Below are positions 9,607 to 64,000 of a DNA stretch of 64,000 nt, piece after piece. The position numbers were made by a program, and so were the translations under genes. The notes beneath the pieces are model-generated. The model was not told the DNA's origin. It did not search any database and worked only from the letters and a program-made list of their open reading frames with translations. Position 1 is the first letter of the stretch. Each line of letters starts with the position of its first letter. The stretch comes from Isurus oxyrinchus (taxonomy: Eukaryota), in the NCBI GenBank assembly GCA_026770705.1, contig JANJGN010000018.1:75826001-75890000 (forward strand), given 5' to 3'.

Positions 9607-9881
9607 TGTTGTAAAGTGTTGGATACCATTAGGTAGATCTTAATGAAGTCCTTGTAGTCATAAGTATGTTAACTGTATGTATTTATTAAATGCAAGAACT
9701 ATGTACATATATACAGTAAAGGATTCAAGCTAGGAGCTGTCTCCATGCTTACTTGTACACACAGCTCTGTCCAACACTGCACTGACCCCTAGGTGTAGGT
9801 CATATGTTTTCTTACATCACTGTGGGCGGTACTGTATTCAGTCCCACGTTAACCCTCTGCATCCCAGGCCCTTATAATACA
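9607..9881 (-). repeat. 3' LTR
   Basis: TG...CA termini, AATAAA on the minus strand near 9683, adjacent PPT 9882-9889. Confidence 0.9.
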
Positions 9882-10254
9882 CCTCCCCCAAGTCTTTATA
9901 CAGTGTATTTCAAGTTATGCTCGTTTACTCCTTGTGTTGACATTGTTATTACTGCCCCATCTCTCCCCTTCAAGTTTCTGAGTTCATAAGTTCAGACTGT
10001 CTGGAGGCCTTATAACCCTTCCATATCTTGTTTGCACTACTGCTGGAGGAATATTAGGCTCTGTCGTTGCAGGTAAACTCTGTTGGTTTGGAGGTTGTTC
10101 TGACATCTGGGTATCTTTACATCCTCCTTTTCCATTCCTTGGTATTGAACTGCTCTTTGTCGATACAGCAGCTGTGGTGATAGGTAGCTGTAGATTTATC
10201 CCATTTTTCCAGGGCGGATGTGCAGCTCACCGTGGCACATATGGAAGTTCATGT

Positions 10255-10890
10255 TTCAACAATAGGACCTTCATTCCCACTTGCTTCACAATTTCAGCCA
10301 ATTTTTTGATTATTTTATTTTTTTCCAGTTGTTTTTTGAGCTTATGAATCTTTTCATTCAGTTTAGTAACAACTCTGGTAAGTTGAGTTGCTTTTGTTTC
10401 AGAGTTATCTGTGGAACTCTTGTATAGGTTTGACAACTTCACCTAGGCATTCACTTCTTTTCAGAGTCTTTCCTCCATGGTCACTCGCTGCTTCTTAGAC
10501 TCTTTCAATTCGCTTGTTAGATCTTCAATCCATTCTGTAGAATTCACCTCTTCTGCTTTTAAAGTCTGGATTTCCTCTTCCATACGTGCATCTCATCCTT
10601 CACGTTGTGCAGATTGGACCGGAGTTCAAGGAGTCCATCAGTTTTGGTTGTTAATTCTACTTTCAAGCAACTGTTCTGATTCATCAGCAATTCCTTCTCC
10701 CATTCCTGACATTTTATATGATGCTTATTGGAGACTTCTGATGCTTGAAGTTCACCAAGTTTTAATTGAAGATCCATTTTTGTTGTATTTATTTCTACAA
10801 GTTCATCATTTAAGCGTTTCAAGTCCTCTTTCAAGTGTTCTACTTCCTGTGAGCAACATTCCAGTGTTCTCATTAGTTCTTACTTTTGTA
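10255..10890 (-). pseudogene. TPR: Captured intronless fragment of nucleoprotein TPR N-terminal coiled coil (disrupted)
   Basis: [50 protein letters not shown]...[21 protein letters not shown] / [11 protein letters not shown]...[50 protein letters not shown] aligns by eye to TPR [50 protein letters not shown]...[24 protein letters not shown]. Confidence 0.88.
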
Positions 10891-11529
10891 CATCTTCCAT
10901 ACATGAAGGTTGATTCTCTCCCATTGATCAGTTTTCCTTGGCAGAGTATAATTCATTGGTGCTATTGTTCAAGCTCGCATTCTGTAATTGTGCTTCTGCT
11001 GATGTTTTTGAGACTCCTCACGAGCTTTTGTGAGAACTTCTACTTTCTCTTGCCATTCTAGGTTCTTTATTTTCATCTCTTCGTATATCTCATTGGAAAT
11101 GTACCATCTTTCTAAGTTTTCTTCCAAATGTCCGAGCATTTTCTTCAGCTCTTTCTTGTGCCTCTGTGACCCCTCAAAAATTTACTTGTTTAAATCTTGA
11201 ACAATTTTAGTGTCTCATGCATTTCCAAGTGTATATACTCAGCTTGAATTTTCAGTTTCAAATCTTCCAATTCAGTTCTGATACAAACATTTTCAAACCC
11301 TTTTGCAGGGTTTGTTTATTTTGGCTTTAATTAAATATTTTTCCTTCATTCACAGCCAACTGCTCATTCCCCATTGTCACCTGCTGTGGCAACTCAGATA
11401 ATGTGTTGGGATTTCCAAAAAGATATATTTTTGAAACTCCCAGAAAGTTCCCTGCCTCCCTGACGCCATCATAGGATTTATTTGAGTATTGTCTTTTTTC
11501 ATTTTGGTGCCTTACTGGGGGTTTCCTGT

Positions 11530-11837
11530 GCCTCTTTTTAAGCTCTGTGCAACTTAAAATCCACAACTTAAAATATTCATCTAATATTTAATCAAAGCTG
11601 GTTGAGGATTCATCAATGTGTTGAATTAGGATTGCTTCATCAACATGCTCACCAAACCAGTATGAAAAGTATAAAAACCAGTATAAAAATATTAATCTGG
11701 ACTTTTTCTAACTTTCTACTGAGACCTGATGTACTTTTGTAGTTTAAAAATTTTCTTCTCCAAGATACCCAATTTTCCATAAGGTTTGGCTTTTGGATGA
11801 GTCCAAATTGATCAGGTAAGTTGGATTTTTGACCCAA
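11530..11837 (-). pseudogene. Degenerate Gypsy gag N-terminus
   Basis: LPDQF...ENWVSWRRKFLNYKSTSGL..K.EKVQINIFI then IDESSTSFD*ILDEYF, typical of aquatic-animal Gypsy gag N-termini. Confidence 0.7.
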
Positions 11838-12528
11838 GGTTAAAAATTTTAAACTATAGGTTCAGCTTTAAGGAGTTGCTGAAATTCAAGATGGTGCCAT
11901 TGTTCATTTGAAGATAAAGGGTTTTCCTGCACTTACCAGTTTTGGCGGGTTTCTGCTGTAATGGCGCTCGTACTCAGCTTGAAAAAATTATGAACAATGG
12001 CGGCTTGGATAGATTACCCTGCTAACTTCTCCGTTTCAGCACTATGCTTTAGGGTTACAAAAGCGTTCAATCCTGCTCTCTGCTGTTCTTTAAAGCTGAT
12101 TCTTTAGTCGTGATTCTTCTGAATCAATTAATTAATTTTTCCCTTTTTGGACCGAGCTTGGATGTTGCATGTTCAGGTGTCGGCTCAGGAACCTGGTTTC
12201 TGACCACTGAACAATTTACAAGTTCCCAGGACTGTTGTGTCCTGGAATTTAGATGTTTTAGCTCACCCCTTGTAGTTCTGCTGACTCTGCAGTCTTGGAG
12301 TTGAAGCTGGACTTCCAAGAGATTCTATGGAGCCTTCTGTTGCAGTGAGGAATTTTAAATTCTTGCCTTCAATTCCCAAATCTTTCTTTGGAACTTTTCC
12401 TTGGTGATTTTCCTCTGCCCGTCTGCTTCTCAAGCTTTTCTTCAGGTCAGAATGCTGCTTTGAATTTTTATTTAGTTTTGCAGGAATTTAGTTTTTCTTT
12501 GCATTTTTTGCGAGCTTTTGGGTTTTTC

Positions 12529-12543
12529 TCCTCACTGCCACCA
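12529..12543 (-). promoter_or_regulatory. Primer binding site (tRNA-Leu-like)
   Basis: Plus strand ctcactgccacca resembles a tRNA-Leu 3' end (...cgctgccacca); it lies immediately inside the LTR. Confidence 0.6.
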
Positions 12544-13494
12544 TGTTGTAGGGCATTGGATACCTTCGGTAGGTCTTAATGAAATCTTTGTAGCTTTAAG
12601 TACATTAACTGTATGAGCAGAATTTAGCTCGTCAGGCGGGCGCGGTTGGGGAGCTGACTGCTACCCGCAATCGAGGCTGGAAGGCGATTTCATGCTAGCG
12701 GGCTAATTAAGTCACACCCAGCGTGAAACGCACGTGACAGTGCCCAGCGCTGCCTGTGCGGGCGGTAGCAGCAGGGCGAGTGGGGCGTGCGCAAACTTTG
12801 TGCATGCGTGCAAGAGTGCGCTTGATAATCTCCCTGAGGCATGGAGCTGCCTCAGAGAGATGAAGAGTCTAAAAAAAAAATAAAGAAATGAAAAATGTTT
12901 TAAAACATGTGCCCTCATGTGACTCTGTCGCATGAGCTGGGACATGTTATTAATTAAATTTTAAAATTTTTATTTTATTTTTATTTGCTTTAGGAAACCT
13001 CATCCCGCCCGTGGATGAGGTTTCCTAAAAAGTGCAAAGGCTGCTTGGCCTTTTCGCCTGCCCTGCCAACCATGAAGTTGGATCGGCAGAGAAAAAGTCT
13101 ATTTAATTGATCCCTTAATGGCCTTAAGAGGCCTTTTAATTGTCAGCAGGCACGCTGCTAACTCTGGCGCGCACCCCCCGACAAAAATATTGTGCGACTA
13201 TACATTGATGTCAAGATGTTTGCCCAATGTCAAAGCTCATCAGCGGGTTGGGCGCACGCACGCCTGCCAAGCTAAAAACTTTGCCCAATGTATTTATTAA
13301 CTGCAAGAGCTATCTAGATACATACAGTTAAACGTTCAAGCTAGGAGCTGTCTCCATCCTTGATTGTACACACAGCTCTGTCCAACACTAAATTGACCCC
13401 TAAATGCAGGTCATGTGTTCTCTTACATCACTGTGTGGGCGATACTGTACTCAGTCCCACGGTAACCCTTTATGTGCCAGACCCTTATACTATA
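12544..13494 (-). repeat. 5' LTR, interrupted by a MITE (12614-13287)
   Basis: 12544-12613 plus 13288-13494 align collinearly to 9607-9881. Confidence 0.9.
12614..13287. mobile_element. ~650-bp MITE with GGGCAGAATTT-type terminal inverted repeats
   Basis: Terminal inverted repeats; homologous copies at 31519-32165 and 37655-38272; inserted within the LTR. Confidence 0.8.
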
Positions 13495-29236: not shown

Positions 29237-30778
29237 TTAAGAATGGATGGTAGGGCACTCAAGGTATAGCTCTAGTGGGGGTGGGGAGAGCATAAAAGAT
29301 TTAAAAATATTTAAAAATAATGGAAATAGGTGGGAAAAGAAAAATCTATATAATTTATTGGAAAAAACAAAAGGAAGGGGGAAACAGAAAGGGGGTGGGG
29401 ATGGAGGAGGGAGCTCAAGACCTAAATTGTTGAATTCAATATTCAGTCTGGAAGGCTGTAAAGTGCCTAGTCGGAAGATGAGGTGTTGTTCCTCCAGTTT
29501 GCGTTGGGTTTCACTGGAACAATGCAGCAAGCCAAGGACAGACATGTGGGCAAGAGAGCAGGGTGGAGTGTTAAAATGGCAAGCGACAGGGAGGTTTGGG
29601 TCATTCTTGCGGACAGACCGCAGGTGTTCTGCAAAGCGGTCGCCCAGTTTACATTTGGTCTCTCCGATGTAGAGGAGACCGCATTGGGAGCAACGAATGC
29701 AGTAGACTAAGTTGGGAGAAATGCAAGTGAAATGCTGCTTCACTTGAAAGGAGTGTTTGGGCCCTTGGACGGTGAGGAGAGAGGAAGTGAAGGGGCAGGT
29801 GTTGCATCTTTTGCGTGGGCATGGGGTGGTGCCATAGGAGGGGGTTGAGGAGTAGGGGGTGATGGAGGAGTGGACCAGGGTGTCCTGGAGGAAACGATCC
29901 CTACGGAATGCCGATGGGGGGGGTGAAGGGAAGATGTGTTTGGTGGTGGCATCATGCTGGAGTTGGCGAAAATGGCGGAGGATGATCCTTTGAATGCGGA
30001 GGCTGGTGGGGTGATAAGTGAGGACAAGAGGGACCCTATCATGTTTCTGGGAGGGAGGAGAAGGCGTGAGGGCGGATGCGCGGGAGATGGGCTGGACACG
30101 GTTGAGGGCCCTGTCAACGACCGTGGGTAGAAAACCTCGGTTAAGGAAGAAGGAGGACACGTCAGAGGAACTGTTTTTGAAGGTAGCATCATCGGAACAG
30201 ATGCGACGGAGGCGAAGGAACTGAGAGAATGGGATGGAGTCCTTACAGGAAGCGGTGAGTGCGGAGCTGTAGTCGAGGTAGCTGTGGGAGTCGGTGTGTT
30301 TGTAATGGATATTGGTTGTCAGTCTATCACCAGAGATTGAGACAGAGAGGTCAAGGAAGGGAAGGGAAGTGTCAGAGATGGACCACGTGAAAATGATGGA
30401 GGGGTGGAGATTGGAAGCAAAATTAATAAATTTTTCCAAGTCCCGACGAGAGCATGAAGCAGCACCGAAGTAATCATCGATGTACCGGAGAAAGAGTTGT
30501 GGAAGGGGGCCGGAGTAGGACTGGAACAAGGAATGTTTCACATACCCCATAAAGAGACAGGCATAGCTGGGGCCCATGCGGGTACCCATAGCCACACCTT
30601 TAATTTGGAGGAAGTGAGAGGAGTTGAAGGAGAAATTGTTCAGTGTGAGAACAAGTTCAGCCAGACGGAGGAGAGTAGTGGTGGATGGGGATTGTTCGGG
30701 CCTCTGTTCGAGGAAGAAGCTAAGGGCCCTCAGACCATCCTGGTGGGGGATGGAGGTGTAGAGGGATTGGACGTCCAT
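29237..30778 (-). CDS. Penelope reverse transcriptase + GIY-YIG endonuclease (partial)
   Basis: 513-aa ORF with the motifs above; N-terminus cut off by a stop, C-terminus apparently extended by a frameshift. Confidence 0.9.
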   Translation of the reverse strand: MDVQSLYTSIPHQDGLRALSFFLEQRPEQSPSTTTLLRLAELVLTLNNFSFNSSHFLQIKGVAMGTRMGPSYACLFMGYVKHSLFQSYSGPLPQLFLRYIDDYFGAASCSRRDLEKFINFASNLHPSIIFTWSISDTSLPFLDLSVSISGDRLTTNIHYKHTDSHSYLDYSSALTASCKDSIPFSQFLRLRRICSDDATFKNSSSDVSSFFLNRGFLPTVVDRALNRVQPISRASALTPSPPSQKHDRVPLVLTYHPTSLRIQRIILRHFRQLQHDATTKHIFPSPPPSAFRRDRFLQDTLVHSSITPYSSTPSYGTTPCPRKRCNTCPFTSSLLTVQGPKHSFQVKQHFTCISPNLVYCIRCSQCGLLYIGETKCKLGDRFAEHLRSVRKNDPNLPVACHFNTPPCSLAHMSVLGLLHCSSETQRKLEEQHLIFRLGTLQPSRLNIEFNNLGLELPPPSPPPFCFPLPFVFSNKLYRFFFSHLFPLFLNIFKSFMLSPPPLELYLECPTIHS

Positions 30779-31518: not shown

Positions 31519-32165
31519 GGGAGTGAATTTTCTCCCTGTTGGTGGGCACGGGCGAGAGCAGACCTGATCGGCGCCCCCGATTTTATGTGGGCAGGCCAGT
31601 TAAGGCTCACCCAGCGTGACGCATGCCTGTGTGCTTCCTTTGTGGCCGGGGGAGGGGTGGTCCCTGAATCAGGACTGCGCTCTTTTGCGCATGCATGCAG
31701 AAGAGCATAAAAATCTCCCTGAGGCAGAGAGGTGATAAGCTTTAAGTTTTAAAAATTTTAATAAAGAAAAAATAAATTTAAGACCTGTCCCCTCATGTGA
31801 TAGTGTTACATGAGCTGGGACATGTCAATGAACATTAATGAAAAAATTTATTTTATTTATACATCCTTCATAAAGACTCATCCTGCCCGTGGATGAGGTT
31901 CCATGGAAAATGTGAAGGCCGCCAGGGCTCTTCGCCTGCCTGCCAACCTTAAGGTTAGACGGGCAGCTTTCTCAATAGCCTTAATTAGTTAATTAATGGC
32001 CTTAACAGGCCTTTGACAGTTCGGCAGGTGCGCAGCCAACTTGGCTGAACTGAAAATCTAAATGATGCGCGGTGACGTCGGGACACTCGCCTGATGTCAC
32101 CCTGCGTCATCTTACGCCTCGGTGAGTGGGTCCCGCCCCTGCTCGCCAAGCCGGAAATTCCCCCC
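31519..32165. mobile_element. MITE, same family
   Basis: gggagtgaatttt...gaaattccccc termini; shared cctcatgtga and ccgtggatgagg core. Confidence 0.8.
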
Positions 32166-36986: not shown

Positions 36987-38406
36987 TGCTGAGCTGTTCA
37001 AATCCCGGAGGGAAACTTGAAACAACTGTCACAACTAATTTTCAATTTGTATGTTTTGAGATGTTTTGAATTCAGCAATAACATTACCAAGTCTTAAGAG
37101 GTTTTATACAACTAACTTAAACATTTATTAATAAATTGTAATTGTAAGCACATGTATATGTCCGAAAATTACTGCTACAATAACTTTTAAATCCCTAATT
37201 AATCTGGTTCCCAGTTACACCTTCGTTAAGGCAACTATAAAACACACAGATTTTAAAAGACTCAGGCAATGTAAAATATACCCTGAACAGTCTAATTTGA
37301 AGCGAGTTCTCATAACTTCAGTCCCTGGAGGCAACAGTTTGGTACATACAGGCTAAAGACGTTTCACACTTGTTGAATCTTAAACTGCCTACCCTTACAA
37401 ATATTTTCCCCTTTGAGTGCAAATATCCATGTTTCACTATGTCTTTGGACTTTACCTTCCTGATGATAAAAAACCTCTCAAAGCACTAAGTTTTACCAGT
37501 AATCTTTGGGGGAAAAAAAACACACTGTTTTTAAACTTCACCTAGCTAGGTGACACATTTCACCCGTCCTTTGAAAACAATCTAAGTCTGGTTCATTTAA
37601 AACTGTAAATGTCCTTTTATACCTTACATTCTAAACTTCCCCCCTGTTTACCATGGGCAGAATTTTTTTCTTCGTCGGGCATGCCCGACCCGAACAAGAG
37701 TAAAATAGTGCGCAATGACTTTGGGTAAGCTTCCCGATGTCATTGTGCACTCTCGTGATATTTCGTTCGATGGGCACGCGTGAGAAGTAGCAGCATGCCC
37801 GCGAACAATTAAAAGGCCTATTAAGGACCTTAATTAACTGAATTGAATTTTTCGCTGCCCATTCGCTGGCGGGTGAGCGAATAGGCCAAGCGGCCTTTGC
37901 ATTTTTTGCAAAACCTCATCCATGGGTAGGATGAAGTTTCGATCAGTGATTAAAAAACAAAACTTTTAAAACTCATTTTTAACAGAGTCACATGAGGAGA
38001 CTTATTTTTAAGTTCTTTATTTGTAATGTTAAAAATTTTCAGCTCCCTGAGGCAACTCTCTTTCTTCAGGGAGCTTTCAGTGTGCGCTCCCCGACACATG
38101 CGCAGACTTCAGTGCTCACGGTCCTCCCACCCGCACCCCTGCAGTGCTGAGGCTCCCAGCACGCGTTTCACGCTGACCAGCCGTTAATTGGCTGGCCAAC
38201 GTGAAACTGCAATTGGTTTTGTGGTCCTGGGCCTGCCTGCTGCACCCGCCGACAAGGTAAAAATCCTGCACCATGTTTACATCAAAGCCTTCAGACCAGC
38301 TGCTGTTAATCCAATTAAGTCACACACACACACACATACAAACACAGATACCACCATTTTACAATAAATTCCAATAACATTATGAGAATTATTATATCTT
38401 CCCAAC
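36987..38406. repeat. Putative solo LTR, same family, MITE-interrupted
   Basis: Shares gggaaacttg, cccagttacac, aaggcaac, attatga.aattattata blocks in the same order. Confidence 0.5.
37655..38272. mobile_element. MITE, same family, opposite orientation
   Basis: gggcagaatttt...aaaatcctgcacc termini; flanked by CAT/AT; shorter relatives at 1807-2012 and 20112-20243. Confidence 0.75.
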
Positions 38407-62709: not shown

Positions 62710-64000
62710 CAAAAACAAAAACAGAATTACCTGGAAAAACTCAACAGGTCTGGCAGCATCGGCGGAGAAGAGTTGACGTTTCGAGTCCTCATGACCCTTC
62801 GACAGAACTCGAGTCCAAGAAAGAGTTGAAATATAAGCTGGTTTAAGGTGTGTGTGTGGGGGGCGGAGAGAGAGACAGAGAGGGAGGTGGAGGGGGTGGT
62901 GTGGTTGTAGGGACAAACAAGCAGTGATAGAAGCAGATCATCAAAAGATGTCAACAACAATGGTACAAAAGAACACATAGGTGTTAAAGTTAAGAGTTGG
63001 TGATATTATCTAAACGAATGTGCTAATTAAGAATGGATGGTAGGGCACTCAAGGTATAGCTCTAGTGGGGTGTTTTTTTTTAAAATAATGGAAATAGGTG
63101 GCAAAAGGAAAATCTTTATAATTTATTGGAAACTCCTCTCACTTCCTCCAAATAAAAGGTGTGGCTATGGGTACCCGCATGGGCCCCAGCTATGCCTGTC
63201 TCTTTATGGGGTATGTGGAACATTCCTTGTTCCAGTCCTACTCCGGCCCCCTTCCACAACTCTTTCTCCGGTACATCGATGACTACTTCAGTGCCGCTTC
63301 ATGCTCTCATCGGGACTTGGAAAAATTTATTAATTTTGCTTCCAATCTCCAGCCCTCCATCATTTTCAAGTGGTCCATCTCTGACACTTCCCTTCCTTGA
63401 CCTCTCTGTCTCAATCTCTGGTGATAGACTGTCCACCAATATCCATTACAAACCCACCGACTCCCACACCTATCTCGACTACAGCTCTTCACACCCCGCT
63501 TCCTGTAAGGACTCCATCCCATTCTCTCAGTTCCTTCGCCTCCGTCGCATCTGTTCCGATGATGCTACCTTCAAAAACAGTTCCTCTGACGTGTCCTCCT
63601 TCTTCCTTAACCGAGGTTTTCCACCCACGGTCGTTGACAGGGCCCTCAACCGTGTCCGGCCCATCTTCCGCGCATCCGCCCTCACGCCTTCTCCTCCCTT
63701 CCAGAAACATGATAGGGTCCCCCTTGTCCTCACTTATCACCCCACCAGCCTCCGCATTCAAAGGATCATCCTCTGCCATTTCCTCCAACTCCAGCATGAT
63801 GCCACCACCAAACACATCTTCCCTTCACCCCCCCTATTGGCATTCCGTAGGGATCGCTCCCTCCGGGACACCCTGGTCCACTCCTCCATCACCCCCTACT
63901 CCTCAACCCCCTCCTATGGCACCACCCCATGTCCACGCAAAAGATGCAACACCTGCCCCTTCACTTCCTCTCTCCTCACCATCCAAGGACCCAAACACTC
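62710..64000. mobile_element. Second copy of the same Penelope family with inversion: minus-strand 3' end (62710-63132) joined to plus-strand RT body (63131-64000)
   Basis: Near-identical to 28904-29360 (same strand) and to the reverse complement of ~29755-30625; AA microhomology at the junction; 5-bp deletion frameshift near 63397. Confidence 0.95.
62770..62810 (-). ncRNA. Minimal hammerhead ribozyme, second copy
   Basis: GAGUU-CUGUCGA-AGGGUCaugagGACUC-GAAACGUC-AACUC, same variant core. Confidence 0.75.

Follow-up and report, generated by a model that had tools for sequence, protein, structure and literature searches.

Selection maintained the reading frame, and not TPR function, in a family of shark LTR retroelements that carries captured host coiled-coil sequence. 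One LTR element acquired spliced TPR mRNA, extending from approximately 18 nt before the ATG to approximately codon 470, as an in-frame continuation of a protease-like segment; the descendants carry the TPR piece in another shell, preceded by a Gag-like segment and by captured UACA coiled-coil sequence. The TPR and UACA pieces alike lost length in steps as the element went on copying itself. The likeliest reason for retention of the frame, with a probability of about one half, is that it encoded a Gag-like protein whose tail was a generic coiled coil.

The window contains a decayed non-autonomous LTR element

The copy in the window (the entire 64,000-nt stretch that was analysed) is a decayed LTR element of 3.3 kb, the parts and junctions of which are on the minus strand. 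Alignment of the two LTRs delimited a 3' LTR of 275 bp (9607..9881, TGT...ACA), preceded by a polypurine tract (9882..9891), and a 5' LTR in two parts; the first (13288..13492) matches 9677-9879 at 84% and the last (12544..12615, ending in ACA) matches 9607-9679. Between these parts a gap in the alignment marks a later insertion of 672 bp with imperfect terminal inverted repeats (12616..13287, unstranded), which is probably MITE-like. Directly after the 5' LTR is the primer-binding-site-like motif TGGTGGCAG (12533..12543); this or a near-identical motif followed the 5' LTR in most of 13 further two-LTR copies. The LTRs are identical at 243/291 positions in the window pair and 78-86% identical in the 13 copies, among which 5-bp target-site duplications, judged by eye, were exact in four and near-exact in two. 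Uninterrupted copies measured 3.2-3.3 kb. No reverse transcriptase or integrase core was detected between the LTRs, and a Pfam search of the three sense frames returned the TPR domain alone (E<0.001). With its TG...CA repeats, primer-binding-site-like motif, polypurine tract, short target duplications and lack of such a core, the window element has the organisation of a non-autonomous LTR retroelement.

The interior begins with a segment of approximately 100 codons (11510..11850) that opens the subfamily-wide frame and that we take to be Gag-like from its Ty3/Gypsy motifs. It is followed by pieces of the UACA coiled coil (11065..11344), a coiled-coil-like spacer (10957..11064) that is longer in the sister subfamily, the TPR piece (10255-10956) and a low-complexity tail (9986..10254), which in the window copy shares its frame with the third and fourth TPR blocks. 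The tail ends in RxGRxxxPP, a motif that we presume to resemble Ty3/Gypsy integrase ends. In the family DTG, ILGNDLA, a CxxC-like knuckle and an ADALSR tail were seen, on which our assumed protease, Gag and RNase H labels are based; neither these labels nor the integrase one gained support from Pfam, PDB sequences or a single-sequence fold (mean pLDDT 51), which returned no Gag capsid or SCAN domain and no aspartic protease. Assignment of the family to Ty3/Gypsy (Metaviridae), or of the older shell to Gmr1-like elements, is thus tentative. In one copy of an older shell (L118:6002-6403) the element ends in the RNase-H-like ADALSR just before the 3' LTR, with a blank Pfam result; this order is presumably that expected of Gmr1-like elements.

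Several other features of the window were recorded. Relatives of the 672-bp insertion are present at 31684-32045 and 37716-38076, and the very high depth of its contigs in DNA runs points to a MITE-like family of great abundance. At 9958-9980, approximately 75 nt before the real polypurine tract, a second purine run is joined to an LTR-start-like sequence, possibly the relic of an earlier LTR and hence of an LTR swap. Inverted copies at 29751-30625 and 63131-64000 are 96% identical over 875 bp and are far younger than the other repeats of the window. Contigs from three DNA-type sequencing runs (two organisms) match the locus in part and differ from it little; none of those listed crosses the whole locus, and no RNA sequencing run with the locus was among the runs listed.

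Three in-frame deletions in a spliced copy of TPR

The minus strand of 10255-10956 is an intron-free, spliced copy of part of TPR, and a 105-residue open stretch of it matched whale shark TPR (E 8e-20). The host gene was located in the same genome at G000:C16:74.25-74.30 Mb, and exons 1-14 were joined at their GT-AG ends to give a reference frame of 576 codons without stops. The window copy is 77% identical to this coding sequence (CDS) and aligned to it in four blocks: block 1 (10633..10956; CDS 293-625, spliced across exons 3-6), block 2 (10381..10632; CDS 659-911), block 3 (10323..10380; CDS 1008-1065) and block 4 (10255..10322; CDS 1252-1319), the last of which ends at the 3' capture end of the window subfamily.

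The blocks are separated by deletions of 33 nt (11 codons; CDS 626-658, junction 10632|10633), 96 nt (32 codons; CDS 912-1007, junction 10380|10381) and 186 nt (62 codons; CDS 1066-1251, junction 10322|10323). The first-pass annotation had reported three in-frame internal deletions, the first of about 11 amino acids; codon alignment to the genome's own TPR bore out both the number and the size, all three lengths being multiples of 3. The TPR peptide that it had given for the first deletion was not that of the shark, the gene of which reads TDELLELRREKSNEILELR, so that the 33-nt deletion spans between two LELR repeats.

The same deletions were found in other copies. Among 50 loci of the window subfamily, which were retrieved with the window as query so that sharing is partly a product of selection of the sample, the net loss was exactly 33 nt in 40/49 informative loci, exactly 96 nt in 29/46 and exactly 186 nt in 30/44; most of the other loci were offset by a few bases from copy-level indels. 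In principle, the gaps might stem from splice isoforms of TPR, from cryptic splice sites used in the element RNA or from faulty alignment. In an older subfamily a 162-nt deletion does allow one of its ends to be set 1 nt away from an exon junction, but the ends of the three deletions of the window copy are 37-74 nt away from the junctions, their exact lengths recur in dozens of loci, and none of the 14 shared deletions tested fitted GT..AG within 15 nt. The 96- and 186-nt deletions swallow exon junctions, and none of the three deletions could be given a GT..AG placement. Exon skipping and cryptic splicing were refuted for these three deletions by the junction distances and the missing GT..AG, and splicing or artefact is an extremely improbable source of the gaps as a whole.

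The window copy itself is broken. It has a private 1-nt loss at CDS 706, as well as stops and frameshifts, and owing to this loss the first deletion junction is out of frame with the second and third.

Older forms, subfamilies and a second capture

In total, the alignments to TPR comprised 124 loci and those to UACA 76, with common junctions; two different element shells are represented among them. Both the spacer and the Gag-like part are present in at least 150 copies, this being the number of matches scored of 1,651 and 8,021 candidates, respectively. Among the 150 scored Gag-like matches the longest open frame was 232 aa and no helper element or intact copy was found; every copy seen is now decayed.

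Older forms were retrieved by a genome search with the host exons that lie inside the deletions. The deletion states are nested: the 186-nt deletion alone, in seven loci (L102-105, L107-109); the 186- and 96-nt deletions; and all three, in the window subfamily. Mean identity to host TPR was 84%, 82% and 77% in these classes, respectively. No element copy retained exon 11, the sole candidate (1/1) being the host gene. The older forms carry TPR from approximately 18 nt before the ATG to approximately codon 460-470, and several have a different 5' region and longer terminal repeats of up to 1.7 kb. In this older shell a protease-like end (ILGNDLA) was, by eye, in frame with the TPR ATG in 27/34 loci.

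A tree of the 102 of the 124 loci with enough sequence grouped the UACA-bearing and related loci in a clade (0.99), with the window subfamily nested inside it (0.99); the oldest classes were not separated. Neither the 96-nt nor the 33-nt deletion is confined to a single lineage background, so each either recurred or recombined.

A profile of nine upstream coiled-coil pieces matched shark UACA (E 8e-98), the large exon of which is on host contig C25. Approximately 517 codons of UACA were captured and later suffered shared deletions of 282, 450, 753, 102 and 453 nt; the window retains approximately 280 nt (11065-11344), with the in-frame 753-nt deletion near 11154|11155. The modal distance from UACA to TPR was in frame in both subfamilies (17/36 and 5/21 loci at the mode). 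A search for the source of the spacer gave generic coiled coils in the Atlas and element-like matches alone in the genome.

Short annotated proteins with element-specific joins were found in Cetorhinus maximus and Scyliorhinus torazame, and one annotated shark protein joins the spacer to the TPR-like LNEKIH. The chimera is therefore older than the split of these two shark orders, an age that agrees with 17% LTR divergence. That split dates from the Jurassic.

Variant forms were also observed. In L179 and L180 nearly all of TPR has been lost, and a single open frame of 181 residues runs from the spacer into the final codons of TPR. Many sister-subfamily copies (L154-L182) share a 21-nt in-frame insertion at approximately TPR CDS 292, and 25 loci share a 3-nt deletion at UACA position 552; neither belongs to the 13 deletions analysed below. 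The UACA pieces of L111 precede a TPR part without the 33-nt deletion, and L114 combines the window-type 5' region and all three deletions with no UACA match; these two may be transitional forms. A further 138 genome-wide matches were obtained to the UACA segment that is deleted in the main subfamilies, many of them split at an internal gap of approximately 38 codons; they come from additional subfamilies whose deletions differ (L193, 114 nt; L194, 126 nt). Each of the pairs L018/L084, L017/L028 and L022/L024 lies on one chromosome, and the similarity within a pair far exceeds that to other copies; the pairs are likely later segmental duplications, and so non-independent insertions.

Shared deletions preserved the reading frame

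Across the 124 TPR and 76 UACA alignments there were 17 deletion clusters (at least 10 nt, in at least three loci), of which 12 were in frame. Clusters of 97, 185, 187, 188 and 754 nt were merged into the 96-, 186- and 753-nt events, from which they differ by a nearby private base or two, and a 201-nt cluster was split into deletions of 162 and 39 nt. Each of the resulting 13 distinct events was a multiple of 3: 33, 39, 51, 96, 117, 144, 162 and 186 nt in TPR and 102, 282, 450, 453 and 753 nt in UACA. Among single-locus deletions the in-frame fraction was 33/100 at 10 nt or more and 25/61 at 20 nt or more, an imperfect null since those deletions come from DNA repair and not from reverse transcription.

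Frame preservation could also arise with no selection, if repeat-guided template switching on a coiled-coil mRNA yielded in-frame deletions unaided. The host sequences at the ends of the 33-nt deletion match at 11/15 positions (LELR twice), and the 96-nt deletion is on a perfect 13-nt direct repeat, the longest in the captured host CDS. Repeats in host TPR mRNA are in frame in 44% of cases at 3 nt, 56% at 5 nt and 90% at 9 nt, and those of at least 5 nt in 56-100%. With end repeats of 5, 13 and 3 nt, the 33-, 96- and 186-nt deletions have expected in-frame shares of 0.56, 1.0 and 0.44, the product of which is 0.25; short in-frame host repeats at the deletion ends thus make the argument from these three deletions weak. 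The presence of the 96- and 33-nt deletions in more than one background is likewise what such switching might produce. Over the 13 events, however, the repeat-adjusted chance falls to approximately 0.002, the 186-, 162-, 117- and 144-nt deletions have end repeats of just 3-4 nt, 33-41% of single-locus deletions in the same sequence are in frame by the imperfect null above, and the capture junctions are in frame as well. An origin without selection is largely refuted at the family level and is improbable overall.

The distribution of small indels and stops was examined across the copies. In the window subfamily 148/174 small indels shift the frame, and none was present in more than 4 of 51 loci; one frequent frameshift, of 2 nt near CDS 888, was found in 9/124 loci scattered over the tree. 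Over 553 codon columns (window 11851-10229; 27 sequences) no stop was common to 40% of copies, and the anchors of the Gag-like, UACA and TPR parts all fall in this open phase; its apparent end, the column at 10229, shows a mixture of letters of the kind that CpG decay produces. A start codon was present near the beginning of the open phase in 56% of 18 copies. Shared stops over the whole window-subfamily alignment numbered 28 in the open phase compared to 77 and 77 in the others, and two other subfamilies, with a few shared-stop columns within the long frame, gave 18 compared to 80 and 66 and 8 compared to 105 and 78; because the host frames were open before capture, these scans are not independent of it. 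Direct Gag-to-UACA and TPR-to-tail distances were noisy; Gag and UACA are in frame by the column phase of the alignments.

The first-pass annotation had suggested that the chimera was trimmed while still translated and under selection. For the reading frame this suggestion held, given the shared deletions in two captured genes, the in-frame capture junctions and the subfamily-wide open frames; it did not hold on the three deletions that had prompted it, nor did it extend to the amino-acid sequence of TPR.

TPR-derived residues show near-neutral change

Substitutions on the stem of the window subfamily, at which older classes keep the host codon, comprised 36 non-synonymous and 15 synonymous changes compared to 965 and 341 private changes, a ratio like that of copy-level decay (p=0.63); the stem relative dN/dS was 0.85-1.09 over three thresholds (p of at least 0.63). 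Pairwise relative dN/dS was 0.71 (0.43-1.23) for TPR and 0.69 (0.19-4.21) for UACA. Between subfamilies, the 102 Gag-like codons gave 0.34 (0.20-0.57), a constraint that may have acted in autonomous donors. Net synonymous distance was 0.45 for the Gag-like part, far above the 0.13 of TPR, and this gap points to a swap.

No stop was present on the subfamily stem compared to 2.0 expected (p=0.14), a weak signal. Shared changes were no more conservative than private ones, and proline changes (0/34 shared, 30/875 private) came from too few changes for a claim of avoidance. The changes common to all copies relative to the host (8 to 26) gave a strong signal, which is not creditable to the element because it includes the evolution of the host gene itself. 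Heptad-preserving trimming was considered and rejected; of 16 deletion lengths, 9 leave a remainder of 0, 3 or 4 on division by 7, a count close to the expectation of 7. From these sequence comparisons, the TPR-derived residues appear to have changed at a near-neutral rate.

These data also bear on the idea that the piece worked as TPR, by binding nuclear-basket parts or endogenous TPR and so easing export of unspliced RNA or guiding integration, with trimming that tuned the binding. According to the available part of PMC3258255, export of unspliced RNA of the retroviral type is restrained by TPR at the pore, and N-terminal fragments show activity in the same assay; the oldest copies carry the TPR N-terminus. 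In human TPR, the available part of bioRxiv 10.64898/2026.10.08.757499 places ZBD1 at aa 29-88, ZBD2 at aa 386-481 and the NBD at aa 450-622. On this map ZBD2 is interrupted by the 186-nt deletion (aa 356-417) in all informative copies and ZBD1 by the deletions of 63, 162 and 51 nt, and the captured TPR ends at approximately aa 440-470, at or just inside the start of the NBD. The basket-binding segments mapped in that part of the source were thus cut or never captured, the residues were not conserved, and a second, unrelated coiled coil was added, all of which make a TPR-like function very doubtful.

Proposed mechanism

The deletions would have been made by template switches of reverse transcriptase at short repeats, which should be plentiful in coiled-coil mRNAs. 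Frame-keeping variants alone would then have founded subfamilies, copying success acting as the filter. In the preferred reading, the element would have needed its Gag-like protein to end in a coiled coil of generic type, either to self-associate or to co-assemble with the particle of a helper element. Tail length and exact residues would have been irrelevant, and shorter RNAs would have won. Both captures are sense-strand coiled coils; counting against this reading, there was no sign of selection on the protein structure of the tail.

Selection on the frame could instead act at the level of the RNA, and this explanation, although tentative, ranks close behind the coiled-coil tail. A premature stop would turn a long stretch of the RNA into untranslated tail, with nonsense-mediated decay or less translation-linked packaging as the result, and the captured peptide would be passenger stuffing in the course of being deleted. 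Nonsense-mediated decay of mRNAs with long 3' tails is established. The near-neutral substitutions, the unpreserved heptads and the steady loss of captured sequence, down to L179 and L180 with nearly all of TPR gone in frame, are as expected under such selection. It does not account, however, for the fact that each of two independent captures is a long coiled coil, sense and in frame, although capture may simply be easier for repetitive A-rich mRNAs; several hundred bases of TPR were also retained in all large subfamilies.

More speculatively, a non-autonomous vertebrate LTR lineage may twice have recruited host coiled-coil rods, TPR and then UACA, as a structural Gag-like tail, moved the module between shells, shed the basket-binding segments of TPR and kept the rod. 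If so, host coiled coils would be a selected assembly or helper-hijacking module of parasitic retroelements.

That the frame was kept and the residues and host binding sites were not makes selection for translation separable from selection for host function, and the question of why non-autonomous elements keep any ORF becomes testable. Fragments of these elements appear among the uncharacterised genes annotated in basking shark and cloudy catshark and so contaminate shark gene sets; the family could also mimic TPR or UACA duplications.

Comparison with known systems

Two familiar types of TPR-derived sequence were rejected. A functional TPR retrogene or domesticated gene disagrees with the stops and frameshifts of the window copy, the relative dN/dS of 0.71 and the 232-aa maximum frame among the 150 matches scored; an L1-type processed pseudogene disagrees with the presence of just the 5' fifth or so of TPR, flanked by LTRs. 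Acutely transforming retroviruses carry gag-onc fusions, in which host mRNA lies behind gag, and are helper-dependent. In TPR-kinase fusions the N-terminal rod of TPR is the fusion partner (PMC3258255, available part). The shark family resembles both, with host mRNA behind a Gag-like part and reuse of the TPR N-terminal rod; unlike the gag-onc retroviruses it has no captured catalytic domain, no env was seen in it, and it underwent long germline amplification.

A search of the literature yielded no account of TPR or UACA in an LTR element of sharks. It did not extend to Repbase, Dfam, most subscription journals or preprint supplements, so a repeat name may already exist. The term 'TPR' was absent from the available part of a Greenland shark preprint (10.1101/2024.09.09.611499).

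The closest precedents are captures of host genes by transposable elements, which are compared here from the available portions of the sources cited. LTR-mediated retroposition in animals was described by Tan et al. 2016 (PMC5131818). The features of such retrocopies are present in the shark family, namely an intron-free partial mRNA within an element and retrotransposition after capture with shared junctions. As in those cases, partial spliced mRNA replaces internal element genes, several parental genes occur in one chimera, further non-autonomous rounds followed, and the joins are often in frame; the template switches of Tan et al. occurred at short similarities. Their cases were mostly young and 14/21 older ones were functionless, whereas the shark family, with at least 124 loci in several subfamilies, underwent 13 shared deletions, acquired a second host gene piece and moved to another shell, and kept its frame throughout. 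Maize Bs1 (described in PMC5131818) is likewise an LTR element with several host gene pieces in one chimera that was recopied after capture. It has 1-5 copies and three parental genes, one of them out of frame, with identical switch points in all copies; the shark family, by contrast, is high-copy, vertebrate and progressively trimmed, and both of its identified captures are coiled coils.

Repeated capture of host genes by one element group, with higher copy number, is shared with the Drosophila telomeric elements, which captured fragments of nxf2, aub or piwi (PMC13534243). These are non-LTR elements, with a small-RNA action that needs high identity and no frame, whereas the shark family kept the frame with host identity down to 77%. 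Among vertebrates, crocodilian CrocERV29 (KIT-ligand) and CrocERV31 (nectin3) are LTR elements with captured host mRNA and shared in-frame indels, present in 6-9 copies and older than speciation (PMC4299795). Their captured genes are separate, near-complete ORFs under purifying selection; the shark captures are fused to the element frame, fragmentary and near-neutral in their residues. Gene capture by LTR elements is therefore already known, and the shark family differs from the cases compared in its copy number, the serial capture of two coiled coils, the change of shell and long in-frame trimming without residue conservation. The vertebrate cases compared, as given in those sources, are low-copy or keep the host protein whole, and the shark family provides a long, ordered record of what survives capture.
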